Assembly: GCA_031441465.1 (NCBI GenBank)
Contig: JANOEP010000066.1
Location: forward strand, 94,132-158,131
Direction of reading: 5' to 3'
Length of the DNA stretch: 64,000 nucleotides
DNA from: a bacterium
Lineage (GTDB): Bacteria; Krumholzibacteriota; Krumholzibacteriia; LZORAL124-64-63
Translations under genes and position numbers: made by a program
The notes under the pieces: generated by a model
Told to the model about the DNA's origin: nothing
Seen by the model: the letters and a program-made list of their open reading frames with translations, nothing else
The model's database searches: none
In this document: positions 20,405 through 61,551 of the stretch, one piece after another
Position numbering within the stretch: the stretch's first letter is position 1
Layout of the letters: each line of letters begins with the position of its first letter

Positions 20405-20968
20405 ATGACCGAGCAGCCCGTCGGCATCCTGGCCCTGCAGGGCGACTTCGAACTCCACGCCGCGGCTTTGGTCCGGCAGGGAACGCCCTATCTCTTCGTA
20501 CGTCGGCCGACGGAACTGGCCGCGTGCCGTGGCCTCGTCATTCCCGGCGGCGAGAGCACGACGATGACCCGCCTGCTGGACATCGTGGGGCTGCGGCAGC
20601 CGATCCTGGACTTCGCCGCAGCCGGCAAGCCGATCCTGGGCACCTGCGCCGGGCTCATCATGTTGGCGGCGCGCGTCGACGAGGACGAGCGCAGGCACGG
20701 CGTGAAGCCATTGGGGTTGCTGGACGTGCTGGTGCGGCGCAACGGCTACGGGCGGCAGGTGGACTCGTTCGTGGACGAGGTCGTCGTCGCTGGGCGAGCC
20801 GACCCGGCGCAGGGCGTGTTCATTCGGGCGCCGAGGATTCTCGAGGTGGGGGCGGGGGTCGAGGTCGTGGCGACCTGGCGGGGGGAGACGGTGGGGGTGC
20901 GGAGCGGGAAGGTGACGGGGTTGGCGTTTCATCCGGAGGCGGGGGAGAGCGAAGCCTGGATTCAGTAA
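20405..20968 (+). CDS. pdxT: pyridoxal 5'-phosphate synthase glutaminase subunit
   Basis: Contains GILALQGDF, GESTTM and GTCAGLIM with the catalytic Cys. Confidence 0.85.
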   Translation: MTEQPVGILALQGDFELHAAALVRQGTPYLFVRRPTELAACRGLVIPGGESTTMTRLLDIVGLRQPILDFAAAGKPILGTCAGLIMLAARVDEDERRHGVKPLGLLDVLVRRNGYGRQVDSFVDEVVVAGRADPAQGVFIRAPRILEVGAGVEVVATWRGETVGVRSGKVTGLAFHPEAGESEAWIQ

Positions 20969-21025
20969 TTTCTCATCTCTGGCCAGCCGGGATTGATAAT
21001 TCCGTATCGATCGCTTTCACTTATC

Positions 21026-21034
21026 TGCTACAAT
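21026..21034 (+). promoter_or_regulatory. extended -10 element TGcTACAAT upstream of LVIVD paralog 1
   Basis: It lies in the AT-rich region 20970-21160. The block TCTGCTAcAAT..GCCATC.CTCGTG is conserved upstream of paralog 2 as well. Confidence 0.4.
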
Positions 21035-21161
21035 CATGCCATCACTCGTGTGACCCCTTGGTGGAGGACGATTTACGTCATTTGATGAACGGCCACGGCT
21101 CGCATTACTGACCTGACTTGATATTTCGGATACGGGACCCTTAGCAACAAGGGGTGCATCC

Positions 21162-23777
21162 ATGTTGGGACCATTTAGGCTCCTGTTCGCAATCGTTTGG
21201 GGAAACCGGTCCACCTGCCGCGAGATGCCGCGACGAGCATTGCCGGCACGATGGCGTGTGTGCGTGGTATCCGTTGCGACGATCCTGGGGGTATCGACCT
21301 TGCCGGGATCGGCACTGTCGGGTTGTTTCGAGTATGGCGCCACACCTCGAAGGATCGGTGTCTTTGATGTTGACATGAATCAGCGCGACATCGCCGTAGG
21401 CGGCAACTATACATATGTGGCTGACTCACAGATCGGGATCAGGATCTACGATATCAGCGACGGCCATGCGCCTCAACTCGTCAATACCTGGAATATGGTG
21501 ATGTCTCCTGAGACCATCTCGGTGGACGGTGGCTATCTATACATCGGTGGTTCGACATCCGATATTTACATTGCCAACATCGTGGATCCGGTCAACCCCA
21601 GTATAGTCGGTAGCATGGTCGGTCCAGGTGGCGGATTCACGGTATCGCAGGGGTATATGTTTTTTTACGCAGGGGATGGAGGTCTATTGATCATCGACGC
21701 AACAGATCCCACAAACCCCAAGATAGCAAGCCGTGTGGACCTGTCGTACGGCTGTATGGGCATTGCTGCTGATTACCCGTATGTCTGTGTCATGGACGGT
21801 TTCTGGTACATTAATGTCATCGATATTCATGATCCCTATAATCCAGTCACCACTTCATCTGTTGACTTGTATCAAACATGCCTCAGCTTTGATGTTCTAG
21901 GTGATCATTTATTCATAATGGAGGATAGAATCCTCAAGCGTTACAATATTTCCGATCCGTACCACCCGAGCTACAGTGGCAATGTCGATTTGTCTGTGCG
22001 AGCAAACAATGTATTGGCATACAGTTACGATAGGGCAATAGTATCTTATGGCGCGAGTTTTGGCACGTATGGCAGTATCTGGTCGATCAATTTTTCCAAT
22101 GCCGCGCCATTCATGGTCGATTGGAAGATCCCCATGGCCATGCCGGCTCTTGTCGTGCAGGCTGATAGCTCGCGAGCGGTTGTACAGGAATATTCGTCGC
22201 ACATGGCGGCGGATAGATGGAGGTCGCAAATCGCCATCGTCGACATCGACGATGATGTTGTCTCGCCGCGCCCGGGAACCGACTACATCTCGTGGACGAT
22301 ACGTGCAGACTTGGCGGTGAATGGATCTTCTGCATATGTAAATCTCGGATTTGGAATCGGATTAGTCGATGTGACTGATGCCCTCGCTCCTTTCTACGTC
22401 AGCTATATCGGCATGCCGGAGTTGTCTGCACTGGCCGTGGATGGGGCGCTGATTTATGCCGCGTGCGCAGACAGTCGGTTGTATGCGATCGATGCAGGCA
22501 GTTTCCAGGAGCCAGTAGTATTGGGCAGCATCGACCTCCCTGGCGTGCCGACTGGATTGTCAGCCGAGTGCGGTGCCGTTTATGTCGCATGTGGCGGCGA
22601 CGTCACCGTCGTGGATGTTGCAGATCCGGGGGCGATGGCGGTGACTGGTACTGTGGTGACGCCCGGTGTGGCGGCCACTCTTGTAGCAGTCGGTAGTTAT
22701 GCATATGTGGCGGACGGTGCGGCGGGCTTGCAAATCATTGATGCGTCCGTACCTCAACATCCAGAAATCATCGGCCAGGTGGCGGCCCTTGGTATTGCGA
22801 ACAAAGTCGCAGTAGCGGATTCTTGCGCGTATGTTGCAAACGGCAGAGATGGGTTGCAGATCATCAATATCGCCGACCCGCTCGATCCGTATCAAACTGG
22901 AGTGTTTGTCGAATTTACAAATGTCGCCGATATTGCTGTTTCTGATGAATATGCATACTTGGCGTGTGGCGAACATGGAGTGTACGTAGTCGACGTAACG
23001 GACCCATTGGAGCCCAAGTTCACGGGAAGAGCATGGACGCAGGGCGATGCAGTGGGGATTGTGGTTGCCAATGACGTCGTGTATTACATCGATTCTGGCG
23101 GATATATCAATATTATACCGAGGCAATGCAGCGGCAGCGTGCCGGTGATGATGGCGGCATTCATGGCTGAAGAGATCGACGGCGGATGCGGCCTAGACGA
23201 CGGGTATGCGGGCGATGCTGCACAGACAAGACAGATCCGTGTGACTTGGCGGTTCGAGGAGCCTCTGGCAAGTAGCCGCCTCAGGCTCGAGGCTGAAGCA
23301 GATGACGCAACGTGGAGCATTGCACTGGGTGCGCCATCTGATAACAGTTTACTGTGCGAGTTCTTTGTTGATGACTGTGTGCCCATGACAATGAGTGGAA
23401 GATCAATTGTCTATCGTCTCCAATACTTCCGGAATGCCGGCGGTTGGGAGGAATTGGGAGAGACGTCGGTCGAATTGCTTGATCTGGCCATGCCCGGCGC
23501 CAGGGTGCCTGCATTGTCTGTCTGTCCGAACCCCTTCAACCCGAGCACGCAGGTGTCGTACGAGATGGCGCGCCCCGGGACTGCGCGGGTGACGGTCCAC
23601 GCACTGACCGGCGCGCTGGTGCGGGTGCTGGCGGACGGGCCGCAGACCGCGGGAGCGCACTTCGCGACGTGGGACGGCCGGGATGGGCGGGGGCGCGAGA
23701 TGCCGGCAGGCGGGTACGTGGTGCGGATCGCGACGGAGGCGGGGACCGGGGCGGTCAAGGCGGTGCTGGTGAGGTAA
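21162..23777 (+). CDS. LVIVD-repeat beta-propeller protein with a C-terminal FlgD-Ig / Por-secretion-tail-like sorting domain (paralog 1)
   Basis: 871 aa. Probable start at 21225 (MPRRAL...SGC, lipoprotein-like signal). Has approximately 40-aa periodic repeats (G.Q..D.S.P..P..). Confidence 0.75.
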   Translation: MLGPFRLLFAIVWGNRSTCREMPRRALPARWRVCVVSVATILGVSTLPGSALSGCFEYGATPRRIGVFDVDMNQRDIAVGGNYTYVADSQIGIRIYDISDGHAPQLVNTWNMVMSPETISVDGGYLYIGGSTSDIYIANIVDPVNPSIVGSMVGPGGGFTVSQGYMFFYAGDGGLLIIDATDPTNPKIASRVDLSYGCMGIAADYPYVCVMDGFWYINVIDIHDPYNPVTTSSVDLYQTCLSFDVLGDHLFIMEDRILKRYNISDPYHPSYSGNVDLSVRANNVLAYSYDRAIVSYGASFGTYGSIWSINFSNAAPFMVDWKIPMAMPALVVQADSSRAVVQEYSSHMAADRWRSQIAIVDIDDDVVSPRPGTDYISWTIRADLAVNGSSAYVNLGFGIGLVDVTDALAPFYVSYIGMPELSALAVDGALIYAACADSRLYAIDAGSFQEPVVLGSIDLPGVPTGLSAECGAVYVACGGDVTVVDVADPGAMAVTGTVVTPGVAATLVAVGSYAYVADGAAGLQIIDASVPQHPEIIGQVAALGIANKVAVADSCAYVANGRDGLQIINIADPLDPYQTGVFVEFTNVADIAVSDEYAYLACGEHGVYVVDVTDPLEPKFTGRAWTQGDAVGIVVANDVVYYIDSGGYINIIPRQCSGSVPVMMAAFMAEEIDGGCGLDDGYAGDAAQTRQIRVTWRFEEPLASSRLRLEAEADDATWSIALGAPSDNSLLCEFFVDDCVPMTMSGRSIVYRLQYFRNAGGWEELGETSVELLDLAMPGARVPALSVCPNPFNPSTQVSYEMARPGTARVTVHALTGALVRVLADGPQTAGAHFATWDGRDGRGREMPAGGYVVRIATEAGTGAVKAVLVR
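23526..23777 (+). repeat. conserved 3' sorting-domain cassette (copy 1 of 3)
   Basis: About 95% nucleotide identity to 26310-26561 and 28972-29224. The sequence ccgaaccccttcaacccgagcacgcaggtgtcgtacgag... recurs. Confidence 0.7.
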
Positions 23778-23832
23778 CGGTACCTCCATCGCGCTGATTC
23801 CAGATCATTCTCTTTCGCACCGACTCCCGCTC

Positions 23833-23841
23833 TGCTAGAAT
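23833..23841 (+). promoter_or_regulatory. extended -10 element TGcTAGAAT upstream of LVIVD paralog 2
   Basis: tctgctagaatgtcgccatctctcgtg matches the conserved block seen at 21024-21050. Confidence 0.4.
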
Positions 23842-23969
23842 GTCGCCATCTCTCGTGCACAAACCCGACGGAGGGTGAGCCTCATCATCTGGCTATCGAC
23901 CGGGGATCCTATCCCAAGTCAAATGTGATGTGCCGATGACCGTGACCCTTTGCACGAGGGGGCCGGACC

Positions 23970-26561
23970 ATGCCGAAGACTCGCCACCGTTCCGACTCGG
24001 AGCATGCCAGCCCGAGGACCTCCGCCACCAAAACACCGCTGCGGGAGACGACGCTGCGGCGACGCGCCGGGCTGGCCGCCGCGTCCCTCGCCTTGGCGTG
24101 CGTGTGCGCGTCCGGATCGGCGGCGACCGCCTGCACCGATTACCGGGACCACATCCGCGGCGTCAGCAGAGTCGACACGCCGGGACTGGCCTACGACGTG
24201 GCGGTCTCCGGCCTCTACGTCTACGTCGCGGACTGGTTGGCCGGCTTGCAGGTGATCGATGTCTCGTTCCCGTACTACGCCCAGATCGTGGGCGGCATCG
24301 ACACGCCGGGTCACGCCATGGACGTCGTCATCGTGGGGGATCTCGCCTACGTCGCGAATTACGAGCTCGGCCTGCAGGTGATCGACGTCTCGGATCCGCG
24401 ACACCCCTGGCTCAAGGGCAGCGTGGACACGCCGGGGCACGCCTGGCAGACGGCCGTGTCGGGCGACCGCGCCTATGTCGCGGACGATCTGTTCGGCCTC
24501 CACGTGATCGACATCACGGACCCGGCGCACCCGCAGCTCCTGGGCAGCGTGGACACGCCGGGGCACGCCTGGGGGGTGGCCGTCGCGGGGCCTTACGCCT
24601 ACGTCGCGGACGAGAATTTCGGTGTGCAGGTGGTCGACGTCACGGACCCCGCGAGTCCGCAGATCGTCGCCTGCCTGGACACGCCCGGCCAAGCCCGAGA
24701 AGTGGTCATCGCGGGCGCCAAGGCCTACGTCGCGGACGGCGACGCGGGCCTGCAGGTGTGCGACCTCTCGGACCCCGCCGACCCGCAGATCGTCAGCGGC
24801 GTCGACCGCTTCGGCTACTGCCACGGCGTCGTCTTGACGGGAACCACGGCTCACGTCGTGTTCGATTCCTACGTGTGCACGATCGACCTGTCCGACCCCC
24901 TGGCACCCGTCGTCGAGGACGGCCAGGGGATCGCCAGCGGCGCCACCAGCATCGCTGTTTCCTGGCCCTACGCCTTCGTGGCGAACGGCAGTTCCGGGGT
25001 GTTGGCGTTGGACGTTTCGGTCCCCGGGATCATCGGGAGCGTCGAGGCGCCGGGAGAGGCCGCAGCCGTCGCGGTATCGGGCGTCCACGCCTACGTGGCG
25101 GCCAGGGATGCCGGACTGCAGGTGTTCGATGTCGCGGATCCCTACCATCCCTTGGTCGTGACCGGTCTGGACACCCCGGGATACGCGGGCGACGTGGCGA
25201 TCTCGGGCACCTGCCTGCTCGTCGCGGACGGGGATGCGGGGCTGCAGGTGGTCGACATCGCGGATCCGGGTAACCCCGTGATCGTCGGCACGCTGGAGAC
25301 GCCCGGATTCGTCGGCGGCGTGGCGGTCGAGGGGACGATCGGCTACGTCGCGGCCGGGACGATCGGGTTGCTGGTGGTCGATCTCGCCGACCGCGAGCAC
25401 CCGGCGGTCCTGGGCAGCGTGAACACGCCCGGTTTCGCCCTGGACGTCTGCGTCGGGCGGGGCTGCGCCTACGTCGCGGACAGGAATACGGGCGTGCAGA
25501 TCGTCGATGTCGCGAACCCGTCGCAACCCGTCCTGCACGGCAACCTCGACACGCTCGGCGACGCCGAGGGCCTCGCGCTGGACGCGCGCTACTGGTACGG
25601 CCGCCTCTTCATCGCCGAAGGGGATTCCGGTCTCCAGGTCTACGACGTGTCGTCCCCGCTCTATCCCTGGCTCGTCGACAGCGGCACGACTCCCGGCCCC
25701 GCCCGCCGGATCGCGATCACGTACAACCACGCCTACGTCGCTCTCGAAGACCATGGTCTCTACGTCATGGAACGATCCTCGGGCGGCCCGTTCGCGGTCG
25801 AGCAGGTCAACGTGCCGGGACTGGTCCGCGGCGTCGCGGTCTCGGGATCCTTCGTCCTGATCGCTGCCGGGCCCGCCGGGTTGGCCGTGATGCCGGTCCA
25901 GTGCGACCTGAGCGTCCCTAACCTGCTCGCTTCGTTCAACGCGGCGGTGGCCGCGGCGTCGCCGCCATCGCCTGCGGCGCCCGGGCTGCCGGGCGCGCCG
26001 CTGCAGCGGCCGCGGGCCGTCGATCTGACCTGGTCGCTCACCGCCCCCCCGGCGCCCGGGTCCCTGCGCCTCGCCGCCGAATGCGCCGGCGCGGGTTGGG
26101 ACATCCCCTTCCTGCCGGACCCCCAGGGCGCCGCCGGGATGAGCTACGTGGCCCGCGATGACTCCCCCCTGCTCGCAGGCGTGCCGCGGGCACGCTACAC
26201 GCTGCTGCACGCCGTGACCCCCGGCGCCTGGACGGCGCTGGGCGACGTGACGGTCGTGTTCGGGACTTCCGAGACGCCCGGCGCGGCCGTGCCGCAACTC
26301 CACGTGTACCCGAATCCCTTCAACCCGAGCACGCAGGTGTCGTACGAGCTGACGCGGCCCGGCGTGGCGCGGGTGACGGTCCACGCGCTGACCGGCGCGT
26401 TGGTGCGGGTGCTGGCGGACGGGCCGCAGGCCGCGGGAGCGCACTTCGCGACGTGGGACGGCCGGGACGGGCGGGGGCGCGAGATGCCGGCCGGCGGGTA
26501 CGTGGTGCGGATCGCGACGGAGGCGGGGACGGGGGCGGTGAAGGCAGTGCTGGTGCGTTGA
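23970..26561 (+). CDS. LVIVD-repeat beta-propeller protein with C-terminal sorting domain (paralog 2)
   Basis: 863 aa with tandem repeats of the GLQVIDVSDP..P...G.VDTPG.A..V.V.G..AYVA type. The C-terminal 85 aa is identical or near-identical to paralogs 1 and 3. Confidence 0.8.
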   Translation: MPKTRHRSDSEHASPRTSATKTPLRETTLRRRAGLAAASLALACVCASGSAATACTDYRDHIRGVSRVDTPGLAYDVAVSGLYVYVADWLAGLQVIDVSFPYYAQIVGGIDTPGHAMDVVIVGDLAYVANYELGLQVIDVSDPRHPWLKGSVDTPGHAWQTAVSGDRAYVADDLFGLHVIDITDPAHPQLLGSVDTPGHAWGVAVAGPYAYVADENFGVQVVDVTDPASPQIVACLDTPGQAREVVIAGAKAYVADGDAGLQVCDLSDPADPQIVSGVDRFGYCHGVVLTGTTAHVVFDSYVCTIDLSDPLAPVVEDGQGIASGATSIAVSWPYAFVANGSSGVLALDVSVPGIIGSVEAPGEAAAVAVSGVHAYVAARDAGLQVFDVADPYHPLVVTGLDTPGYAGDVAISGTCLLVADGDAGLQVVDIADPGNPVIVGTLETPGFVGGVAVEGTIGYVAAGTIGLLVVDLADREHPAVLGSVNTPGFALDVCVGRGCAYVADRNTGVQIVDVANPSQPVLHGNLDTLGDAEGLALDARYWYGRLFIAEGDSGLQVYDVSSPLYPWLVDSGTTPGPARRIAITYNHAYVALEDHGLYVMERSSGGPFAVEQVNVPGLVRGVAVSGSFVLIAAGPAGLAVMPVQCDLSVPNLLASFNAAVAAASPPSPAAPGLPGAPLQRPRAVDLTWSLTAPPAPGSLRLAAECAGAGWDIPFLPDPQGAAGMSYVARDDSPLLAGVPRARYTLLHAVTPGAWTALGDVTVVFGTSETPGAAVPQLHVYPNPFNPSTQVSYELTRPGVARVTVHALTGALVRVLADGPQAAGAHFATWDGRDGRGREMPAGGYVVRIATEAGTGAVKAVLVR
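26022..26561 (+). repeat. conserved 3' cassette (copy 2; extended homology with copy 3)
   Basis: Shares RAVDL.WSL ... MSYVARDDSPLLAG ... PNPFNPSTQVSYE... with 28675-29224. Confidence 0.65.
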
Positions 26562-26629
26562 ACGACGTCGCATTGCAGGTATGACGACGCGTGGTGCAGA
26601 TCGTTGTCACGAATCGAGGAGGCCCGGCC

Positions 26630-29224
26630 ATGACAGGATGCCCGTCGAGTCCGTTTCATTGGCACGTCCTGGCGCGGGCCAGGCGCCCGATCGCGCCGCT
26701 GCGCGGGAGGCCGGTGTGTGGCCTCGGTCTGGTGGTCGTGATCCTCTCGCTGGCCTCCAGCCTGTACGGGGTCGATTGGTGGTACTGTTTCAACTACTAC
26801 GGTTACTTGAAATGGGTGGGTAGGCTCGACACGCCTGGCAACGCCAGCGACATCGAAATCGCCGGCGGTCACGCCTACGTCGCCGATTTGTTTTCGGGAC
26901 TGCAGATCGTCGATATCACCGGACCGGAGCCGCCCCAGATCGTCAGCAGCATTCCGATCACCAACGGCGCGATGGGCGTCGCCGTCGAGGGCGACCACGC
27001 CTTCGTCGTGGACGCCGCCGCACGTCTGCATGTCGTCGACGTTACGGACCCCGCGGAACCTGAGGTCGTCAGCAGCGTGGACGTGGAGGGATCTGCGTAC
27101 GGCGTGGTCATCGCCGGTCACTACGCCTACATGGCCGCCGGTTACGCCGGAGTCCAGATCATCGACATCACGGACGTGAGCGACCCGCGGCTGGTCGCGA
27201 CCGTCAACACCCCCGTCTCCGCGATGGGCGTGACCATCTCGGGATCGTACATCTACGTTGCTGACGGCACTTCCGGCCTGCAGGTGATCGACATCACGGA
27301 TCCGGCCACGGCGCAGATCGTGGGCGGGCTGAACACGCCGGGAGAAGCTCTCAACACGGAGATCGTCGGCGCTTATGCCTACATCGCGGATTCCGGTACC
27401 GGATTGGTGGTGGCGGACATCACGATCCCCCAATCGCCGGTGATCGTCGCTGTGGTGCCCATGCCGGGGAATGCCCGGGATATGGTGTTGTCGCCAGCAT
27501 TCCTCTACGTCGGGGACTCGACGGGCCTGCATCTGGTCGACGTCACGGCACCCGGGTCTCCCGAACTCGTCGACAGCTACGGGCTCACTGATGACGTCAC
27601 GAGCGTGGCCGTGGTGGGCGATCTCGTCTTCGCCGCCGTCGATGTGCGTGGGATCGAGATCATCGAGACGACGGATCCGGTCCCCTCGGCCAGCTTGGAC
27701 CTGCCGGGAACCGCCGCTGGCGTATCCGTCCAGGGCGATTACACATACCTCGCGTGCGGCGATGCCGGATTGTGCGTGGTCGATGTCTCGAACTATCTGG
27801 ATCCCCGGTTGGTAGGCACCGGGATCGTGCCGGGGAATGCCGTCGATGTGGCAGTCGTGGGGCCGTACGCCTACGTCGCCGCCAGCGAGTCCGGCCTCCA
27901 GGTGGTCGATGTCTCCGACCCCGCGAGTCCACAGCACGTCGGCGGTGTGGACACGCCGGGTTCGGCGTGTGCGGTCGCGATCGCCGGCACCATCGCCCAT
28001 GTCGCGGACGGCGTCGGCGGTCTGCTTCTGGTCGACGTTGCGGACCCTGTTCATCCCGCCATCGTCGGCGGCGTGGACACGCCGGGCAGCGCCCAAGGTG
28101 TATACGTGTTGAATTCCCGAAACAAGACTTACGTCGCCGATGGTGTGTCGGGCGTGCAGGTCGTCGATATCGTGGATCCCGGAAACCCCGTGATCGTGGA
28201 TGTCATCGAGACGCTGGACGACGCCGTCGGCATCACCTTCACGTCGACTCACGGCATCCTCGGCTATCTCTACGTGGCTGAAGGCGTCGGCGGCATCCAG
28301 GTATTCCGCGTCATGGCCGACGGCCAGGTGACACCTCAGGCCATCGGTGGACTGGCCTCGCCGGGCGGTGCCCGGAACCTGTGCATCTCCGGACCCTACG
28401 GCTACATCGCCGAGGGTCCGGCCGGGATCCAGGTGTGCCAGTATTACCAGCAAGGTCTGCAATCCGTTCGCCTCGTCGATGAAATCGCCGAAGCGCTGGA
28501 TGTGATCGCGAACAATAGGAACGTCTATGTCGCGTGCGGCACCGCCGGATTGACTGTTCTGCCGCAACAATGCTCTGGAGAGGGAGTGCCGGTCGTGCTG
28601 TCCACATTCACCGCCGCCGTGAGCGAACCCGATGCGGGGGACTCCGAGGTCCAGGGCGCACCGCCACGACGGCCCCGGGCCGTCGATCTGGCGTGGTCGC
28701 TAGCGGAGCCGATCGATGCGATATCCTTGCGGCTGAGCGCCGAGTCGGCCGGCGATAGCTGGGACGTCTCCTTCCTGCCGGGCCCCCTCGGCGCACCCGA
28801 CATGAGCTATGTCGCCCGTGACGATTCCCCCTTGCTGGCGGGGGCGCCTTCGGTCCGCTACACGCTGCTGCACGCCGCGTCTCCCGGCGCCTGGGCGGCG
28901 CTGGGCGACGTGACGGTCGTGTTCGGGTCCTCGTCGACGCCCGGCGCGCTCGTGCCGCAGCTCCACGTGTACCCGAACCCCTTCAACCCGAGCACGCAGG
29001 TGTCGTACGAGATGGCGCGGCCCGGGACGGCGCGGGTGACAGTCCACGCGCTGACCGGCGCGCTGGTGCGGGTGCTGGCGGACGGGCCGCAGGCCGCGGG
29101 GGTTCACTACGCGGTGTGGGATGGCCGGGACGAGCGCGGGCGCGAGATGTCGGCCGGCGGGTACGTGGTGCGGATCGCGACGGAGGCGGGGACGGGGGCG
29201 GTCAAGGTGGTGCTGGTGCGCTGA
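26630..29224 (+). CDS. LVIVD-repeat beta-propeller protein with C-terminal sorting domain (paralog 3)
   Basis: ATG at 26630 after gaggagg. Has the same repeat architecture. The last about 180 aa are highly similar to paralog 2. Confidence 0.8.
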   Translation: MTGCPSSPFHWHVLARARRPIAPLRGRPVCGLGLVVVILSLASSLYGVDWWYCFNYYGYLKWVGRLDTPGNASDIEIAGGHAYVADLFSGLQIVDITGPEPPQIVSSIPITNGAMGVAVEGDHAFVVDAAARLHVVDVTDPAEPEVVSSVDVEGSAYGVVIAGHYAYMAAGYAGVQIIDITDVSDPRLVATVNTPVSAMGVTISGSYIYVADGTSGLQVIDITDPATAQIVGGLNTPGEALNTEIVGAYAYIADSGTGLVVADITIPQSPVIVAVVPMPGNARDMVLSPAFLYVGDSTGLHLVDVTAPGSPELVDSYGLTDDVTSVAVVGDLVFAAVDVRGIEIIETTDPVPSASLDLPGTAAGVSVQGDYTYLACGDAGLCVVDVSNYLDPRLVGTGIVPGNAVDVAVVGPYAYVAASESGLQVVDVSDPASPQHVGGVDTPGSACAVAIAGTIAHVADGVGGLLLVDVADPVHPAIVGGVDTPGSAQGVYVLNSRNKTYVADGVSGVQVVDIVDPGNPVIVDVIETLDDAVGITFTSTHGILGYLYVAEGVGGIQVFRVMADGQVTPQAIGGLASPGGARNLCISGPYGYIAEGPAGIQVCQYYQQGLQSVRLVDEIAEALDVIANNRNVYVACGTAGLTVLPQQCSGEGVPVVLSTFTAAVSEPDAGDSEVQGAPPRRPRAVDLAWSLAEPIDAISLRLSAESAGDSWDVSFLPGPLGAPDMSYVARDDSPLLAGAPSVRYTLLHAASPGAWAALGDVTVVFGSSSTPGALVPQLHVYPNPFNPSTQVSYEMARPGTARVTVHALTGALVRVLADGPQAAGVHYAVWDGRDERGREMSAGGYVVRIATEAGTGAVKVVLVR
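28675..29224 (+). repeat. conserved 3' cassette (copy 3)
   Basis: Same as the entry above. Confidence 0.65.
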
Positions 29225-29458
29225 AGCGGTCCGGTCCTGTTCCCAGCTCGTCTGGCTCGCCAGGCCTCCGATTCCGGGCGAAGTCTTTCGCCGGTGGTGA
29301 CGTTTCCGTATCATTTCTATGATTATGACAGTCGAGTATCGATCCGATATGCAGTTCCAGGGTATCGCCCGCCAGGGTGCGGCATCACGAAGGGAGCGTC
29401 GACGTCCTGACGGATCCGCTCCGGCAGTTCGTCGGCGACACGGACACATCCACCTTCA

Positions 29459-31825
29459 ATGCCAAGGATGATCACGATGAAGACCCGATCGGCACCAGGG
29501 AAAGTTCCGGAGATCCGGCTGCTGCTCGTGCTCGCGACTGCGCTGGTCGCCGCGCTCGCCGGCTTCACGACCAGCGCCGGAGCCACCGGCGAGATCCTCA
29601 GTTGGGGCGGGACGGTCGTCGTCGCCCAGGATGCCTTGACTAACCTGTCGGCGGTGTCGGCGGGCGAGGGGCATAGCCTGGGTCTGAAGACCGACGGGTC
29701 GATCGTCGCCTGGGGACGCAACAACTTCGGCCAATGCACCGTGCCGGCGCCCAACGCGGGGTTCGCGGCGGTGGCGGCCGGCGGCGAGTACAGCCTGGGC
29801 CTGAAAGCCGACGGCTCCGTCGTGGTGTGGGGATCCAGCCAGGACGGTCTTCATGACGTGCCCGCGCCGAACCTGGGATTCACGGCCGTGTCGGCCGGGA
29901 TCTACCATGCGCTGGGCCTGAAGGCCGATCAGACCGTCGTGGCGTGGGGCTACAACCTTGCGCCGGGCGGCGATCCCGGCGGCCAGTGCGACGTGCCGTC
30001 TCCGAATCAGGATTTCACGGCGGTCGCCGCCGGCGGATTCCACAGCGTGGGCCTGAAGTCCGACGGGTCCGTCGTCTGTTGGGGTAACAACCGGAGCGGC
30101 CAGTGCGACGTGCCTGCGCCGAACACGGGCTTCACGGCGATCGCGGCGGGCATGGACCACAGCATGGGTCTGAAGGCCAACGGTTCCATCGTCGTGTGGG
30201 GCGACAACAGTATGGGCCAGTGGAACGTGCCGGCGCCGAACTCCGGGTTCATGGCCCTGGCGGCGAGCAGGTACGGCAGCACGGGTCTGCGGCCCAACGG
30301 CACGATCGTCGCCTGGGGCGACGACTGGGGGATGGGCCCCGCCGTGCCGTACCCGAATGCGGACTTCACGATGATCGCGACGGGATCCATGCACAAGCTG
30401 GCCCTGAAGTCCGACGGGACCGCCGTCGCCTGGGGCTCGAACGTGTTCGCCCAGTGCAACCTGCGCCCGGCGAGCCTCGGCTGCACGGAACTGGCTGCGG
30501 GGACGATGCACTGGCTGGGCCTCAAATCGAACGGATCCATCGTCGGCTGGGGTGCGAATTCCAGCGGCCAGGCCACGGCGCCCACGGTGAACACGGGTTT
30601 CACGGCGCTAGGGGCGGGACGATACCACAGCCTGGCTCTGAAGACCGATGGTTCGATCGTCGCCTGGGGTGGCAACTTCAACGACGATCTCGAATACACC
30701 GGCCAGTGCAACGTGCCGGCGCCGAACGCGGGGTTCGTGGCGATCGCCGGGGGCGGCTATTTCAGTTTGGGCGTGAAGGACGACGGCTCCGTCGTCGCAT
30801 GGGGTGACAACCGGCTCGGCCAGTGCGACGTGCCGGCGCCGAACGCCGGGTTCGCGGCGGTCGCGGCGAGCGACCGTCACAGCCTAGGCCTGATGCTCGA
30901 CGGCTCCGTCGTCGCCTGGGGGGACAACCTGCACGAACAGTGCAACGTCCCCGGATCGAACTCGGGCTTCACGGCGATCGCGGCGGGCGGCGACCACAGC
31001 CTGGGGTTGAAGGTCGACGGCTCCATCGTCGCTTGGGGAGACAACCAGTTCGGCCAGTGCGAGGTCCCCGCGCCGAACGCGGACTTCATCGCGGTGGCGG
31101 CGGGCGACATCCACAGCCTGGGCCTGAAATCCGACGGGTCGATCTTCGCGTGGGGGAGCCACGGATCCGGTCGGTGCGACGTGCCCGCGCCTAACGCGGG
31201 TTTCACGGCGATCGCGGCGCGTGGCGACGTCAGCCTGGGGATCCGCAGCCTCGTGCCGCAATCCGTCCAGCTGACCCGGTTTGACGTCGAGCGCCGCGGC
31301 GGCCGGGCGACGGTCCGCTGGGCGATGTCCCGGCCGCTCGACCACGCCGGCTTCCATCTCTGGCGGCAGGAGCCCGGCAGCGACCGTGTTCGTCTGAGCC
31401 AGATGCTGTTGATCGGTGAGAACACCTACGACTTCATCGACCGGTCACCGCCGAGGGGAAAGGCGGAATATTGGCTGCAGGAAGTGACGACCGACGGTTC
31501 GGAGAACTGGTACGGCCCCGCGCTCCTGGAGGCAGCCCCGATTCCGACTTCCTTGCATTTGGCCCAGAATCGTCCCAACCCTTTCAATCCAAGCACATCG
31601 TTCAACTTCGAGCTCCCAAAACCTGGCCGCGCCGTACTGGTGATCTACGACGTGCGGGGCGCACGTGTCGCAACATTGGTCGATGCCGGCGTGTCCGCCG
31701 GTGAGCAAAGCATGGAATGGGGCGGCCTCGATGACGGCGGTGTCCCGATGCCTTCGGGGATCTACTTCGCGCGGCTGGAGGCGGAGGATGGTATTCGGAC
31801 GATCAAGGTGACTCTGGCGCGATAA
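29459..31825 (+). CDS. RCC1-repeat (alpha-tubulin-suppressor-like) beta-propeller protein with C-terminal FlgD-Ig / Por-tail-like domain
   Basis: 788 aa with about 13 tandem repeats of HSLGLK.DGS.V.WG.N..GQC.VP.PN. The C-terminus is RPNPFNPSTSFNFELPKPGRAVLVIYDVRGARVATL...GIYFARLEAEDGIRTIKVTLAR. Confidence 0.8.
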   Translation: MPRMITMKTRSAPGKVPEIRLLLVLATALVAALAGFTTSAGATGEILSWGGTVVVAQDALTNLSAVSAGEGHSLGLKTDGSIVAWGRNNFGQCTVPAPNAGFAAVAAGGEYSLGLKADGSVVVWGSSQDGLHDVPAPNLGFTAVSAGIYHALGLKADQTVVAWGYNLAPGGDPGGQCDVPSPNQDFTAVAAGGFHSVGLKSDGSVVCWGNNRSGQCDVPAPNTGFTAIAAGMDHSMGLKANGSIVVWGDNSMGQWNVPAPNSGFMALAASRYGSTGLRPNGTIVAWGDDWGMGPAVPYPNADFTMIATGSMHKLALKSDGTAVAWGSNVFAQCNLRPASLGCTELAAGTMHWLGLKSNGSIVGWGANSSGQATAPTVNTGFTALGAGRYHSLALKTDGSIVAWGGNFNDDLEYTGQCNVPAPNAGFVAIAGGGYFSLGVKDDGSVVAWGDNRLGQCDVPAPNAGFAAVAASDRHSLGLMLDGSVVAWGDNLHEQCNVPGSNSGFTAIAAGGDHSLGLKVDGSIVAWGDNQFGQCEVPAPNADFIAVAAGDIHSLGLKSDGSIFAWGSHGSGRCDVPAPNAGFTAIAARGDVSLGIRSLVPQSVQLTRFDVERRGGRATVRWAMSRPLDHAGFHLWRQEPGSDRVRLSQMLLIGENTYDFIDRSPPRGKAEYWLQEVTTDGSENWYGPALLEAAPIPTSLHLAQNRPNPFNPSTSFNFELPKPGRAVLVIYDVRGARVATLVDAGVSAGEQSMEWGGLDDGGVPMPSGIYFARLEAEDGIRTIKVTLAR

Positions 31826-31858
31826 ACGGCTTGTCGTTCCAGCTGGATGCACCCACGT

Positions 31859-32191
31859 TCACCCGGCGATCTGCGCGGCCCTGCGTCGGATCACCGCTCC
31901 CGCAATGGCGCCAGCGAACGACATCGCGAGTACCAGGAGCATGCCGACGTTCAACTGACGCCATTCAGCAACGATCAGCGGTCCAGCAATCAGGATGGCC
32001 GCCACCCACGGGAGCACGCCGGCGAGTGCGGCCAGCCCCGCTGTCAGCAACAGCGCACCCGCCGTGATGCCCGTATCGTCCCAGTTCGGGCGGGTGTCCA
32101 TCCAGGCGATGGCCAGCCCCGCGGCCAGCGTCAGGACGAGGCCCACGGCGGCCACCGCCGCGGACCGCGGCCCTTTCGATGTCTTCGGCAT
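31859..32191 (-). CDS. hypothetical small membrane protein
   Basis: Three hydrophobic helices (AAVAAVGLVLTLAAGLAIAW, AGALLLTAGLAALAGVLPWVAAILIAGPLIV, MLLVLAMSFAGAIAGAVI). The start chosen is the internal M (MPKTSKG). Confidence 0.4.
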   Translation of the reverse strand: MPKTSKGPRSAAVAAVGLVLTLAAGLAIAWMDTRPNWDDTGITAGALLLTAGLAALAGVLPWVAAILIAGPLIVAEWRQLNVGMLLVLAMSFAGAIAGAVIRRRAAQIAG

Positions 32192-32358
32192 GGGAGCCTC
32201 CCGTCTCGCTCCGGATCCGGGGCGTGACTGCCAGCGAACCTGGTCACGGTAACGGAATCCTCGAACACGCGCCAAGCCTCTTCGTTCCGGCCCGGCAGCA
32301 GGAGAATCGCGCTGGCGCCCCCCGCCCCCCTCCGCTAGGATCCCCCCGGAGGTACCCC

Positions 32359-32577
32359 ATGTTCCTGAAACTCCTGCTCTGGCTGCTGCTGTTCGTGCTG
32401 TGCTGGCCGCTGGCCATCCTGGCGCTGATCTTCTTCCCGCTGATCTGGTTGCTGCTGCTGCCGTTCAAGATCCTGGGCATCGCGGTCACCGGCGTGCTGG
32501 AACTGTTCAAGGCGATCATCATGCTGCCGGCCAGGGTGCTGGGCGGACGTCCCGGCGCCAAGCCGAAGCGCCCCTGA
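32359..32577 (+). CDS. hypothetical small hydrophobic protein (72 aa, 2 TM)
   Basis: ATG at 32359 after ggagg. Sequence is MFLKLLLWLLLFVLCWPLAILALIFFPLIWLLLLPFKILGIAVTGVLELFKAIIMLPARVLGGRPGAKPKRP. Confidence 0.45.
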   Translation: MFLKLLLWLLLFVLCWPLAILALIFFPLIWLLLLPFKILGIAVTGVLELFKAIIMLPARVLGGRPGAKPKRP

Positions 32578-32610: not shown

Positions 32611-33795
32611 ATGCCGACCCGTCGCGGCTGCCAGAGAGCGATCCGCGCGAGCGCGTTGTGCGTGTTCGCGCTGTTCGGTTGTGCGGCGGCGGCGGCCCAG
32701 GGCCTCGACGGTCTGCTGTCGGCCGGCTATTGGGTCCCGCAGCCCGGTGAGCGGGTCCAGCTCGCCTTGGACCTCGACGGGCACGGCACCGAATTCCACC
32801 TGCTGCGCCACCACGAGGGCACCTCGATCCTCTTCGCGGTGCGCGACCGCGCCACCGGCCGCGACGTGGCCGTGGTCAAGACCAACTCCCTGAGCACAAA
32901 CGTGAGCGCGGAGATCTACGCCTGGCGGCTGGCGGTCGTGCTGGGCTTTCCCGAGGTGGTCGCGCCCGTCTCGCCCGTCACCCTCTCGGGCCGCTCCCTG
33001 GCCAAGCTGCGCGACCTGCTGGCGGGCGTGTCTTACGGCGCGTCGCGCAAGGAGGACGCGCGGCGCGAGGTCCTGGCCGAACTCGACCGCGTGCTCGCCG
33101 CCGGTCGCGGCCTGCCCGGCGCGATCAAGCCCTGGCTCGACTGCTTCGTCCAGAACCGGCGGCTGGGCTCGCGCGAATCGCTCGCCGATACGGACGCGGC
33201 CGCCTGGCTGCGTGCCGGCGGGCCGCATCCCGACGACGGGATCGTTGCCCTGTCGCAGGCGAGCGACCTGCAGGAGCCGCACGGCATCCACCTCGGGCGC
33301 ATCCCGGCGCGCCGGCTCGCCGCCGACCTCGCGGACATCATGCTGCTGGACGCGCTGATGGGGCAGGACGACCGCTTCGCCGGCGGCAACCTGCACGTCT
33401 GGCGCGACGGCGGCGAGCGCAGGCGAACGGGCGGCGGGCAGGAGATGCCCCTGTGGGATCTGGGTGAGGTGCGGCTGCTGGCGCTGGACAACGGGGCGGC
33501 CCTGCGCCCGGGCCTCAACACGGGGCTGCGGGACCTGCGCGGCGAGATCCACCCGGGCGTGCGCGCCGAGCGCTTCGACCGCGGCGTCGTGGAGCGGTTG
33601 CGGGAGCTGAAGCGTCAGACGGCGGTCGCGGACTCCGCACAGGTCTGGGAGATCCTGGGTCTGGCCGGCAAACGCGCCGACCTGGCGGCGATCCGGCTCG
33701 CCGACGTCCTCGACTACCTCGACGGCCTCGAAGCCGTGCGCGGCGTGGATATCTGGTTGCCGGACGCCGCGGTCAGGGACCGTCGCTGGCCGTGA
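32611..33795 (+). CDS. hypothetical secreted protein with a protein-kinase-like (PI3/PI4-kinase-like) catalytic-loop motif
   Basis: Signal peptide MPTRRGCQRAIRASALCVFALFGCAAAAAQG. Contains VAVVKTN (lysine motif), AEIYAWRLAVVLG and DIMLLDALMGQDDRFAGGNLHVW (a D-R-..-N-..-W loop). Confidence 0.4.
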   Translation: MPTRRGCQRAIRASALCVFALFGCAAAAAQGLDGLLSAGYWVPQPGERVQLALDLDGHGTEFHLLRHHEGTSILFAVRDRATGRDVAVVKTNSLSTNVSAEIYAWRLAVVLGFPEVVAPVSPVTLSGRSLAKLRDLLAGVSYGASRKEDARREVLAELDRVLAAGRGLPGAIKPWLDCFVQNRRLGSRESLADTDAAAWLRAGGPHPDDGIVALSQASDLQEPHGIHLGRIPARRLAADLADIMLLDALMGQDDRFAGGNLHVWRDGGERRRTGGGQEMPLWDLGEVRLLALDNGAALRPGLNTGLRDLRGEIHPGVRAERFDRGVVERLRELKRQTAVADSAQVWEILGLAGKRADLAAIRLADVLDYLDGLEAVRGVDIWLPDAAVRDRRWP

Positions 33796-35857: not shown

Positions 35858-35880
35858 CGCGAGCCTCCTGCTGCTTCCTG

Positions 35881-36651
35881 CTACTTCAAGAGGGTGAGCC
35901 GCGCCGTCAAGGCGTCGCGACGGTCGGCGCCGCGCACGTCCAGGCGCGCGAAGTACGTCCCGCTCGGGGCGGAGCGGCCGTCGGATCCGCGCCCGTCCCA
36001 GGCCGCGGCGTGGCGGCCGGCCGGCCAGTCGCCCTGGGCGAGGGTGGCCATCACGCGCCCGCGCACGTCGAAGACCGTCAGTTCGATCACGGCCGCGGCG
36101 CGCAGGTTGAAGGCCACGGTGGTCCCGGGGTTGAAGGGGTTGGGATGCACCGGGCCGAGGCGGTCGACCGTCACGGTCGGCGGCGTGCCGGTGCCGCTGC
36201 CCTCGATCGCGAACTCCCCGCCCTGGTCGGCGCCGATCCCGCCGAAGCGGTCGACGGCCCCCACCGCCAGCACGGCCGCGGCCGTCGCGTGGTCGGGGAC
36301 GGTCCAGACCCAGGTGTACTGGCCGTCGGGATCGGGCGGTACGAGGGCCTGCGCGAGCACTTCGGCGCCGTCGAACACCGTCACGGTGATCGCCGCCGGT
36401 GCGGCGCCCCAGCTCGATTCGTCGACGCTCCAGCGCAGCGTCTCCTGGGCGGCGGCCTGCAGCGACTCGCCGCCGGCCGGGTACAACACCGACACGAGCG
36501 GCGGGCGGCTGTCCAGGGTGTCGGGCGCGGAGACGGCGCTGCCCGTCGCGGCGGCGGCGGGGCCGGCGGCGACGAGGCTGATGGCGACCAGGACGGCGGC
36601 GGACAAGACGCCGTGCGGCGGCGAAACGCCACGGATCGTTGCGGTACGCAT
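35881..36651 (-). CDS. secreted protein with C-terminal FlgD-Ig / Por-tail-like domain
   Basis: Signal MRTATIRGVSPPHGVLSAAVLVAISLVAAGPAAA. The C-terminus is HPNPFNPGTTVAFNL...VFDVRGRVMATL...WDGRGSDGRSAPSGTYFARL. Confidence 0.6.
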   Translation of the reverse strand: MRTATIRGVSPPHGVLSAAVLVAISLVAAGPAAAATGSAVSAPDTLDSRPPLVSVLYPAGGESLQAAAQETLRWSVDESSWGAAPAAITVTVFDGAEVLAQALVPPDPDGQYTWVWTVPDHATAAAVLAVGAVDRFGGIGADQGGEFAIEGSGTGTPPTVTVDRLGPVHPNPFNPGTTVAFNLRAAAVIELTVFDVRGRVMATLAQGDWPAGRHAAAWDGRGSDGRSAPSGTYFARLDVRGADRRDALTARLTLLK

Positions 36652-36797
36652 GGCTTGCACCTCGGGTTCGGGGGCTCCGGACGGACGCAGCAAGCGCCGC
36701 GCCGGGGCGGCATGGTCAAGATACGGATGTTCTCAGTAGTGGAAAGGAAGGGCCGCCCGCGTGGGCGGCCCGGCAGGGGGCGGCGTCGTCGGCTGGA

Positions 36798-42997: not shown

Positions 42998-43197
42998 GGT
43001 GGTCTCCCGGGACGGGGTCGGCGGTCGTGCCGATTCCCAGGATAAGCCAGGGATGCGGTTACGGCCCCATTCGCCGTCCGGTTGCGGGGCAGCTGCCCGG
43101 GCCGGGGTCGGCCGAACTTGTTCCCCGATGGCAGTTGTGATATCTTGGTTTCAATATCCCCTGATGCTATCACCACCCCTGGAAAGGACCGACAATC

Positions 43198-48413: not shown

Positions 48414-48414
48414 G

Positions 48415-61336: not shown

Positions 61337-61466
61337 CTGAAGATCCTCCCGCGACGGGGGACGCGCTCCGTTCACATCCTGTGAACGGAGCGCTCGGCTT
61401 TCGGCCCCCAGTGCCCTCCTGGCACTGGGGGCCGAAAGACGCCCCCGTCGCGGGAGGATCTTCAGC
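61337..61466 (+). ncRNA. nested inverted-repeat element: a 25-bp outer stem enclosing two hairpins (loops AUCCU and CUCCU)
   Basis: Outer stem gctgaagatcctcccgcgacggggg pairs with cccccgtcgcgggaggatcttcagc. Inner hairpin 1 is gcgctccgttcac-atcct-gtgaacggagcgc. Inner hairpin 2 is ctttcggcccccagtgcc-ctcct-ggcactgggggccgaaag. There is no U-tract. Confidence 0.4.
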
Positions 61467-61500
61467 GATGCAGCACAATCGGATCTTGTTTGGAGTCATG

Positions 61501-61509: not shown

Positions 61510-61551
61510 CATCCATCATCGGGAGTGGAGACTGGACGGTCGGGGGGGAAG

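Follow-up and report, generated by a model that had tools for sequence, protein, structure and literature searches.

Downstream of pdxS-pdxT in an uncultured high-GC bacterium, three consecutive genes, g1, g2, and g3, encode LVIVD-repeat propeller proteins whose bodies have diverged strongly and whose last 252 nt are nearly the same. How such different genes came to carry a common 3′ end, and whether that end has a history separate from the genes to which it is joined, is the question that this locus raises. It was addressed by comparing the window, the whole 64,000-nucleotide stretch of DNA that was analyzed, with related loci (L001 to L006) in other genomes.

20963..23793, no strand assigned: g1 unit (leader, body, and cassette), missing from L003, L004, and L006
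20969..21161, plus strand: g1 leader/promoter region, homologous by alignment to the g2 leader
21162-23777, plus strand: g1, LVIVD double propeller with an 84-codon C-terminal domain
21162..23525, plus strand: g1 body (GC3 0.57), running from a putative signal peptide through the LVIVD propellers to a beta-sandwich middle domain
23526..23777, plus strand: cassette copy 1, FlgD-Ig/T9SS-type-A-like C-terminal domain of g1 (GC3 0.94)
23774..32307: segment with g2, g3, g4, and a small minus-strand open-reading frame, replaced in L001 and L002
23794..23969, plus strand: g2 leader/promoter region, common to L003, L004, and L006
23970..26561, plus strand: g2, 863-aa LVIVD double propeller with beta-sandwich and C-terminal domains
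25998..26309, plus strand: g2 middle-domain tract with patchy homology to g3
26310..26561, plus strand: cassette copy 2, C-terminal domain of g2
26630..29224, plus strand: g3, 864-aa LVIVD double propeller with beta-sandwich and C-terminal domains
28973..29224, plus strand: cassette copy 3, C-terminal domain of g3, with six private amino-acid changes
29459..31825, plus strand: g4, propeller protein built on RCC1 repeats, its C-terminal domain belonging to the class of copies 1-3 but divergent

The propeller genes of the array

An earlier note on this DNA had described three tandem paralogous open-reading frames with LVIVD repeats, and all three are present at the coordinates that it gave. The repeats (PF08309) were detected in g1, g2, and g3 at E values from 8e-27 to 3e-98, with scores of 92.7, 321.5, and 250.5 bits, respectively, against a cut-off of 20.2. 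Such 42-residue repeats are known from predicted cell-surface proteins (Adindla et al. 2004, PMC2447325), which the array bodies resemble in carrying 42-residue LVIVD repeats. An AlphaFold2 model of g2 (pLDDT 87.9) has regular four-strand blades over residues 63-644, and basic n-regions and hydrophobic stretches are visible by eye at the N-termini, with a helix at residues 26-48 in the g2 model. Each array protein is predicted to run from a signal peptide through about 14 LVIVD blades and a beta-sandwich spacer to an 84-residue, seven-stranded Ig-like C-terminal domain.

The g3 reading frame is open from GTG 26591, and ATG 26630 is more likely to be its start because a GGAGG motif precedes it and the resulting sequence agrees with database protein P0066, which is the g3 protein itself read from that ATG. 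Exact-protein look-ups of g2 and P0066 returned no contig. The gap between g2 and g3, 68 nt long and without a promoter motif, suggests that the two genes probably form one operon. The C-terminal domain of g4 is only 52-55% identical in nucleotide and 38% in amino-acid sequence to copies 1-3 and is therefore not homogenized.

A discrete 3′ tract with a history of its own

Pairwise identity over the last 252 nt is 92.5% for g1-g2 and 91.3% for both g1-g3 and g2-g3, and over 255 nt including the stop codon the identity of copy 1 is 91.8% with copy 2 and 90.6% with copy 3. The earlier note had put this ~250-bp cassette at ~95% identity; the tract and the position of its edge are as it described, and the figure is lowered by alignment to 91-92.5%. 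The propeller bodies, as the note had also claimed, have diverged strongly, with 43-55% nucleotide identity, 29-40% amino-acid identity (29-33% for g1 against g2 and g3), pS of 0.55-0.75, and dS of at least 1.0 and up to saturation. Cassette dS among the same paralogs is 0.17-0.21.

Base composition changes at the same point. The whole g1 gene has a GC of 0.555 and a GC3 of 0.61, compared with 0.67-0.72 and 0.82-0.90 in g2 and g3, confirming that paralog 1 differs in composition, and the maximum-likelihood GC3 change point within g1 is nt 23526, where GC3 rises from 0.57 to 0.94. The identity edge and the GC3 edge in g1 fall together, and the cassette has the form of tract expected under concerted evolution, discrete, raised in identity, lowered in dS, and sharply bounded at nt 23526. 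The end of the tract varies by gene pair, lying about 252 nt before the stop codon for g1 and about 360 nt before it for g2/g3, with patchy identity to 565 nt. The additional homology of g2 and g3, which the earlier note had put at ~550 bp, amounts to 86% identity in the last 500 nt and 81.5% when 600 nt are taken, and 565 nt (25998-26562) can be aligned at 85% between relatives. Positions 25994-26194 of the g2 middle domain are only 66-68% identical to the L003 ortholog, and one 60-nt stretch of that patch (~26082-26141) is 75-82% identical to the g3 copies.

Five syntenic loci were found in relatives, with ~91% nucleotide identity in the flanks and with gene sets of g1 and p422, g2 and g3, g2 alone, or g3 and g4. 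In L001 and L002, a 1.2-kb gene encoding an unrelated protein of 422 aa takes the place of the g2-g3-g4 segment, and the left junction of the replaced segment is the g1 stop codon. The number of LVIVD genes at the site varies from one to three among these relatives, in which mosaic tracts are also present. The suggestion of a variable surface-protein locus is thus supported, as both the number of genes and the gene content of the site differ between close relatives, and within the species complex the site downstream of pdxST can be regarded as hypervariable for surface proteins and of use in strain typing and in studying surface diversification in uncultured FCB bacteria. A metagenome scan with the invariant 23-mer GGCGGGTACGTGGTGCGGATCGC returned two loci only, redundant with L001 and L002, and no further cassette-bearing genes; three chance matches encode GGYVVRIA within an unrelated protein, which we take by eye to be a molybdenum hydroxylase.

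Orthologs of g1 are present in L001 (88% aa identity) and L002 (71-72%), with low GC there too (0.54), those of g2 in L003 (86%) and L004 (74%), and those of g3 in L003 and L006 (92% aa identity). Since other species carry separate orthologs of each body, at 71-92% aa identity, the paralogs predate the complex. The cassettes do not follow these orthologies. In a cassette tree, which was built on 249 sites from 8-9 sequences and is poorly resolved, bootstrap values for the g1, g2, and g3 orthologous groups are 6-7%, and an L003/L006 clade (with L004) receives 64% whatever the gene. Mean cassette divergence is 6.8% between orthologs, 7.6% between paralogs of the same genome, and 6.9% between paralogs of different genomes (p = 0.23 on permutation of gene labels), and copy 1 is 93-94% identical to g2 and g3 copies in other genomes.

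Breakpoints are also seen directly, with 17 of 36 informative site pairs incompatible in a four-gamete test. Between g1 of the window and of L001, the cassette is 9.8% diverged and the adjacent body 2.8% (p = 1.6e-4), while for g1 of L002 the corresponding values are 7.5% and 26% (p = 7e-10), this divergent L002 allele reaching from the pdxT stop to where the cassette begins. The cassettes of L003 g2 and L006 g3 differ by 2.7%, with a perfect run of 143 nt, compared with 4.9% divergence in the genomic flanks of the two loci, and the window and L003 share tracts at 98-100% and others at 66-68% identity. As a control, the domain of L005, an unlinked paralog from the source genome of L003, is only 69-70% identical in nucleotide sequence. 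These edges, the tree, and the breakpoints support well the view of the earlier note that a portable anchor module was placed on divergent propellers by recombination or gene conversion. Its further view, that the process is ongoing, is not supported for this genome, as the window copies are 8.2-9.4% apart and 5.9-7.8% from the L003 and L006 copies, fail to cluster (bootstrap 4.5%), and share perfect runs of only 38-52 nt at the longest. The closer resemblance of paralogs than of orthologs that conversion within a genome would leave is partly seen in the L003/L004/L006 clade, with its 64% bootstrap and the 2.7% difference between L003 g2 and L006 g3.

Routes to a shared module

We consider it likely that the array is a recombination-prone set of exported LVIVD double-propeller genes, the 252-nt C-terminal module of which has repeatedly been overwritten or exchanged by homologous recombination. 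The C-terminal-domain sequence would act as a portable module, moved by non-reciprocal conversion between linked cassette copies and by allelic replacement between related lineages, with homology arms formed on the right by the cassette and on the left by either pdxT or the conserved promoter-leader. Repeated overwriting or exchange would then give g1, g2, g3, and the species complex one shared cassette history. The propeller bodies would be old, saturated paralogs, that of g1 being compositionally foreign and joined to a cassette of native composition, and we infer that selection favors diversification of the exposed propellers. The g1-g2 junction is taken as assembled.

Much of the data would also agree with a burst of homogenization just before the complex radiated, after which the copies drifted mostly independently. 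That a single ancient module fusion or homogenization in the ancestor of the complex accounts for everything, with no cassette exchange afterwards and with the 91-92% identity reflecting elapsed time, is unlikely. The cassette tree is star-like, as such an event would produce, the window paralogs are unclustered with short perfect runs, and their dS equals ortholog dS genome-wide (ProRS 0.16-0.21, PdxT 0.20-0.33); yet equal divergence of cassette and body between orthologs, which a single event predicts, is contradicted by g1 of the window and L001, and the L003 g2 and L006 g3 cassettes are closer than their flanks. The incompatible site pairs and the tract ends that vary by gene pair also speak against a single event. 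A recent whole-gene tandem duplication, with fast propeller divergence under diversifying selection and a constrained anchor, is hardly credible. It would account for the tandem arrangement and the single architecture, and the dN/dS of ortholog bodies is raised (~0.33-0.43 vs. 0.12-0.24 for ProRS and PdxS), but protein-level selection does not produce saturated synonymous sites, the g1 body departs in GC3 from its own cassette, and the bodies have their own orthologs in other species; the duplication was rejected on dS and GC3.

Very improbable too is that the identity is kept by selection on DNA or RNA, through an antisense gene, regulatory RNA, or terminator, or that it is an assembly artefact from a collapsed or chimeric repeat. 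Long antisense open-reading frames do overlap the cassettes, a feature found throughout this genome of 70% GC, but ortholog cassette dS is at the ordinary rate (0.12-0.31), so that selection at the nucleotide level does not explain the identity and was ruled out; an Rfam search of 20500-32500 gave no match, and the unlinked paralog, at ~70%, has not kept the sequence. Repeats of ~250 nt can mislead short-read assemblers, but the copies differ at 21-24 sites and are therefore not collapsed, and a false join through the cassette would have set g1 beside g3 or g4 rather than the g2 leader. L003, an independent assembly, matches the g2-g3 tandem colinearly at 92%, and both the g2-g3 and the g3-g4 orders recur in independent assemblies. 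Divergence from each of the other lineages is 5-10% in all window genes, and the window is therefore not a mixture of those lineages. The collapsed repeat, a danger of which the earlier note had itself warned, can thus be dismissed.

In the g1 leader, TCTGCTACAAT at 21024-21034 fits an extended -10 element (TGnTAnAAT), a motif that occurs twice in the window, against 0 occurrences expected by chance, and once in each related locus. A putative g2 promoter at 23814-23841 reads TTCGCA-16-TAGAAT with TG upstream, and the L004 leader is, by alignment, chimeric between those of g1 and g2. No leader RNA element is claimed, as the consensus fold is weak (-7.9 kcal/mol, with compensatory changes in 3 of 21 pairs, of which one belongs to the hairpin in columns 109-131 of the alignment). 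Beyond the repeated exchange of the module, we raise tentatively, as a doubtful extension, that promoter-leader and cassette might be the joint homology arms of a population-level cassette-exchange locus, at which whole propeller bodies, among them the xenolog-like one with its persistently low GC, would undergo insertion, deletion, and swapping between species of an uncultured FCB lineage. The cell surface would vary as a result, and pressure from phages or predators may be the driver. If so, the anchor domain would double as a recombination handle and offer CTD-anchored proteomes a general route to foreign surface modules. A programmed system of antigenic or phase variation, such as pilE/pilS, vlsE, invertible promoters, or shufflons, was rejected, as all copies are full-length genes and there are no silent cassettes; no recombinase was found among the scanned neighbor open-reading frames, and the search for direct repeats gave coding repeats only.

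Comparable systems and the C-terminal domain

Domain rearrangement and allelic exchange have been described for T9SS cargo of Porphyromonas gingivalis, namely the adhesin and C-terminal regions of Kgp, RgpA, and HagA (Dashper et al. 2017, PMC5266723). The array is similar in that secreted surface proteins of an FCB-group bacterium are concerned, homologous recombination reshuffles conserved C-terminal modules and variable functional regions, and the variant mosaic is unrelated to genome phylogeny. It differs in that propellers of the LVIVD type form the variable part, the uncultured lineage carries the label Latescibacterota, what the genes have in common is the terminal Ig domain of 84 codons itself, one of the paralogs has a foreign composition, and T9SS dependence is putative. 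Neither mosaic loci for surface proteins nor the concerted evolution of conserved modules is new, and the array is a fresh example of a familiar pattern rather than a new mechanism. It documents, in a poorly known group, a C-terminal anchor or sorting domain that evolves as an independent recombining nucleotide module and can be fused to a compositionally foreign gene body.

In NCBIfam naming, "choice-of-anchor" denotes one body paired with different anchors, an idea that the swappable anchor module of the array recalls, although its proteins score 24-69 bits with "choice-of-anchor B" (TIGR04312), below the cut-off of 100. No description of nucleotide-level anchor homogenization in LVIVD or "choice-of-anchor B" families was found in the literature searched.

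The C-terminal domain itself scores 34.5, 35.9, and 33.5 bits in g1, g2, and g3 with FlgD_ig (PF13860), above the gathering cut-off of 27, and contains a WDGRDxxG insertion that we take to be a FlgD_ig hallmark. With the T9SS model TIGR04183 (cut-off 23 bits), g3 (24.8) and g4 (26.8) lie above and g2 (21.4) and g1 (16.5) below. The domain model (pLDDT 94) is a seven-stranded Ig-like sandwich, the top PDB matches of which are FlgD structures (3osv, 7bhq, 7eh9; 28-30% identity, E 3e-4 for 3osv). T9SS proteins follow in the Foldseek search, with PorZ 5m11 (E 2e-3), PorU 6za2 (5e-3), the RemA C-terminal domain 8gl8_D and 8gl6_D (1e-2), and the mirolase C-terminal domain 8qb1 (1e-2). The predicted fold thus resembles solved T9SS C-terminal domains without separating them from FlgD, to which it matches slightly better. 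Like T9SS type A domains (TIGR04183/PF18962; RgpB, PorZ, PorU, RemA; PMC11285876), the array domain is C-terminal, after a putative Sec signal peptide, and a seven-stranded Ig-like sandwich with a GxY motif, a first strand marked by PNP, and a basic strand at the C-terminus; unlike them, it finds its best sequence and fold matches in FlgD Ig-like domains (PF13860).

T9SS core genes (SprA/Sov, PorV, PorU, PorK/L/M/N) were found neither among ten open-reading frames scanned in 39-63 kb, nor by Pfam in five window open-reading frames at 31.9-38 kb, 43.2-43.9 kb, and 61.3-61.9 kb, nor in five related-locus open-reading frames or the Pfam-annotated syntenic left flank of L001. The frames scanned encode AcrB-type pumps, GSDH, PTA, NAD synthase, FGE-sulfatase, S8 peptidase, and SIMPL, with HIT and HNH in L006 and L003, and a search of the literature on Latescibacteria and type IX secretion found nothing. 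A T9SS sorting role of the domain is plausible, and we infer that it directs export and surface attachment in a T9SS-like manner.

PorZ of P. gingivalis also combines a double propeller with a terminal Ig domain, and its structure 5m11 is the best PDB match of the full g2 model (E 2.4e-23). Orthology to PorZ was rejected, as NF052228 gives only 16.7-19.2 bits against a cut-off of 260. The TM-score of the g2 model is only 0.26-0.30, and the array proteins differ further from PorZ in building their blades from LVIVD repeats and in carrying an extra beta-sandwich domain.

Gene content downstream of pdxT

In the window, proS-pdxS-pdxT is followed by four genes on one strand, three encoding LVIVD double propellers (g1, g2, and g3) and one encoding RCC1 repeats (g4).

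Genes following pdxT in the window, all on one strand
g1: 21162-23777, 871 aa, LVIVD double propeller
g2: 23970-26561, 863 aa, LVIVD double propeller
g3: reading frame open from 26591, likely start ATG 26630 behind a GGAGG motif, end 29224, LVIVD double propeller
g4: 29459-31825, RCC1-repeat propeller with a tail of the g1-g3 class

The database protein P0066 corresponds to g3 read from the likely start. Pfam searches identified LVIVD repeats in g1, g2, and g3 (E 8e-27, 3e-98, and 4e-76, respectively) as well as a FlgD_ig domain at the C-terminus of each (33-36 bits, cut-off 27), a domain type carried by seven ORFs within the 64-kb window. g4 contains 13 tandem 117-nt RCC1-type units with a mutual identity of 61-78%, followed by a divergent FlgD_ig tail; its identity to the ortholog in the related locus L006 is only 84%. 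Other FlgD_ig ORFs are located at 43165-43899, where the domain is internal, and 61333-61932. On the minus strand at 33776-36732, a Peptidase_S8 (subtilase) ORF overlaps a 283-aa ORF in another frame with a terminal FlgD_ig tail, a pair represented in the L001 annotation by separate genes of 694 and 255 aa, and two AcrB/RND-family transporter genes lie side by side at 45021-52719, also on the minus strand.

A protein search identified g1 orthologs (P0001, 88%; P0002, 72%), and a genome scan with g2 as the query produced three further syntenic loci; one related locus bears the label Candidatus Latescibacterota. The left flank is common to all of the related loci at ~91% nucleotide identity, with flank distances of ~9% between the window and every other locus, 4.9% for L001-L002, 4.9% for L003-L006, and 6.2% for L003-L004. 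Copy-number variation, which the earlier note had proposed looking for, is present, as the locus is polymorphic for gene presence and absence.

Gene order after pdxT in the window and the syntenic loci
Window: g1-g2-g3-g4
L001, L002: g1 and an unrelated gene of 422 aa where the window has 23774-32307; left junction at the stop codon of g1
L003: g2-g3, followed by an HNH + HIT insert of 1.6 kb
L004: g2, then the contig end
L006: g3 fused to the g2 leader, then the HNH/HIT insert, then g4

The 422-aa gene that replaces g2-g3-g4 (L001 12613-13881; L002 12388-13655) has a signal-peptide-like N-terminus, produced no Pfam match, and is broken up in L002 (two ORFs, 104 and 317 aa). The 1.6-kb insert (L006 12441-14102; L003 15257-16735) lies between g3 and g4 and is missing from the corresponding point of the window (29225-29338). 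Its genes, both on the minus strand, encode a HIT-domain protein (PF01230) and an HNH endonuclease (PF01844), the HNH-like ORF being seemingly frameshifted in L006. The 5′ third of g3 (window 26600-27500) matches L003 and L006 at 98-100% identity, compared to ~91% for the flanks, indicating that the locus as a whole exchanges DNA between lineages and pointing to recent import by recombination.

Exchange of the 3′ cassette among linked paralogs

The shared 252-nt cassette at the 3′ end of g1-g3 begins at nt 23526 in g1, precisely where the earlier note had placed it. The sole correction concerns its identity, given there as ~95%; it is 92.5% (g1-g2), 91.3% (g1-g3), and 91.3% (g2-g3) when 252 nt are counted back from the stop codon. 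In codon alignments, the 84-codon cassette has a dS of 0.17-0.21 and a dN of 0.04-0.06 at 91-92% nucleotide identity, compared to a dS of 1.0 to saturated and a dN of 0.59-0.87 at 43-55% nucleotide and 29-40% amino acid identity in the propeller bodies. The additional homology reported for g2 and g3 was also recovered as a graded tract upstream of the cassette (middle domain, 77% nucleotide identity, dS 0.53; last 500 nt, 86%). The tail of g4, despite its adjacency, is only 52-55% identical to the g1-g3 cassettes at the nucleotide level, with 54-55% over the same 252 nt.

The deviating base composition noted for g1 was borne out (GC 0.555, GC3 0.61 vs GC3 of 0.82-0.90 in its neighbours), and a two-segment likelihood fit placed a change in GC3 from 0.57 to 0.94 at nt 23526. 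The g1 body (21162-23525) has a GC of ~0.54 and a GC3 of ~0.57 in three lineages (the window, L001, and L002) in a genome of 70% GC; this low GC is kept even in the divergent allele at 75% identity, with no drift toward the host genome.

Synonymous divergence between the window and its relatives was calibrated with ProRS (dS 0.16-0.21) and PdxT (0.20-0.33). Orthologous bodies have a dS of 0.09-0.35, up to 0.76 for L002 g1, and orthologous cassettes have a dS of 0.12-0.31, indicating that the synonymous sites of the cassette evolve normally. This rules out selection on the nucleotide sequence as the cause of paralog identity. The paralogous cassettes coalesce near the depth of the species complex, and the bodies are far older.

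Among nine cassette copies from six genomes, mean divergence was 6.8% for orthologs, 7.6% for paralogs in one genome, and 6.9% for paralogs across genomes (gene-label permutation, p = 0.23), and 17/36 informative site pairs failed the four-gamete test. A bootstrapped neighbor-joining tree supported the g1, g2, and g3 orthologous groups at 6-7%, while L003 g2, L003 g3, and L006 g3 grouped at 64%. This decoupled tree, along with breakpoints at the cassette, supports the gene conversion or recombination of a common module proposed in the earlier note. That the process is still ongoing was not supported, since the window copies do not form a cluster (4.5% bootstrap) and diverge from one another by 8.2-9.4%, with uninterrupted matches reaching only 38-52 nt, so that recent conversion in this genome is not demonstrated.

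Much of the window data would fit a single homogenisation that shortly preceded the radiation of the complex, with drift thereafter, but this fails to account for breakpoints between orthologs. Window g1 differs from L001 g1 at 25/255 cassette sites vs 11/400 immediately upstream (p = 1.6e-4), and differs from L002 g1 in the opposite direction (7.5% in the cassette vs 26% upstream); in a sliding comparison, the L002 g1 unit of leader and body (~75% identity) occupies the interval between the pdxT stop and the start of the cassette. The cassettes of L003 g2 and L006 g3 differ at only 7/255 sites, with a perfect run of 143 nt, in genomes whose flanks are 4.9% apart. It also fails on the unequal tract ends, as the sequence shared by g1 begins only at about -252 nt, counted from the stop, and identity among all copies of g2 and g3 is 85-100% starting at about -360 nt. 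Farther upstream, a single 60-nt segment of g2 in the window (-480 to -421, ~26082-26141) is 75-82% identical to g3 copies, and across 25994-26194 the identity of this g2 to L003 g2 is only 66-68%. An assembly artefact is argued against by the recurrence of the g2-g3 and g3-g4 orders in independent assemblies and by the 5-10% distance of each window gene from its orthologs, like that of the flanks; a false join through the cassette would also be unable to put g1 upstream of the g2 leader. As a control, the terminal domain of L005, an unlinked LVIVD paralog of the same architecture from a different contig of the L003 MAG, is only 69-70% identical at the nucleotide level (65% amino acid). Taken together, the dS calibration, the nine-copy tests, the breakpoints, the unequal tract ends, and the L005 and g4 controls show that homologous exchange was repeated and confined to linked, already-similar copies.

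Homologous recombination and concerted evolution are already established as a mechanism at variable surface-protein loci. The nearest described behaviour is that of P. gingivalis surface virulence factors, in which domain rearrangement and allelic exchange produce a variant mosaic independent of genome phylogeny (PMC5266723). Novel at the present locus are its lineage and LVIVD bodies, the terminal Ig domain as the very unit of exchange, and the native-composition cassette on a low-GC body (g1).

A conserved leader upstream of the LVIVD genes

A leader of ~190 nt upstream of g1 (20969-21161) and g2 (23794-23969) is kept in all related loci (alignment A1), where it precedes the first LVIVD gene after pdxT; in the window it is duplicated. 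Its invariant motif, TCTGCTAsAAT, fits an extended -10 element and occurs twice in the window, against a chance expectation of 0; each related locus has exactly one occurrence.

Leader motif in the related loci
L001: 9863-9873
L002: 9633-9643
L003: 9862-9872
L004: 9863-9873
L006: 9685-9695

A promoter scan identified TTCGCA-16-TAGAAT with an upstream TG in the g2 leader (23814-23841). Consensus folding produced weak structure, with one compensatory pair in a small hairpin at alignment columns 109-131, and the leader had no Rfam match; we regard it as a promoter plus 5′ UTR rather than an established RNA element. The L004 leader is chimeric, with a g1-like 5′ half and a g2-like 3′ half, the footprint expected if recombination between leaders deleted g1.

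Predicted structure and putative export of the propeller proteins

An AlphaFold2 model of g2 (66 sequences in the input alignment, mean pLDDT 87.9) contains an N-terminal helix (26-48), regular blades (63-644), a beta-sandwich (653-763), and a terminal domain (778-861). Its best PDB match was PorZ (5m11, E 2.4e-23, TM 0.26-0.30), which likewise combines two propellers with a C-terminal domain. Modelled by itself, the terminal domain is a seven-strand sandwich (pLDDT 94) with top matches to FlgD Ig domains (3osv, E 3e-4; identity 28-30%) and further matches to the T9SS C-terminal domains of PorZ, PorU, RemA, and mirolase (E 2e-3 to 1e-2). With the NCBIfam T9SS type A model (cut-off 23 bits), g3 (24.8) and g4 (26.8) scored above and g2 (21.4) and g1 (16.5) below the threshold. 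The position, fold, and PNP, GxY, and basic-terminus motifs of the domain fit a T9SS-type cargo signal, and it is equally a FlgD_ig member. Scans of fifteen window ORFs revealed no T9SS machinery, and neither did the annotation of the L001 syntenic flank; the g1-g3 products are therefore only inferred to be exported and surface-anchored. LVIVD repeats were defined in predicted cell-surface proteins (PMC2447325), and T9SS is possibly present in FCB phyla other than Bacteroidota (PMC11285876). Orthologous bodies have a dN/dS of ~0.33-0.43, compared to 0.12-0.24 for ProRS and PdxS, which is consistent with exposed proteins evolving faster.

A cysteine near the N-terminus is conserved in the motif C-x-[DN]-Y (g1 ~54-58, g2 ~55-58, and g3 ~65-68 when g3 is numbered from GTG 26591), and a second is conserved in P-x-Q-C ("QC") after the last blade, just ahead of the middle domain in g1-g3. 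Both motifs are also found in the distant homologs P0087 and P0140, and the pair might form a disulfide closing the propeller.
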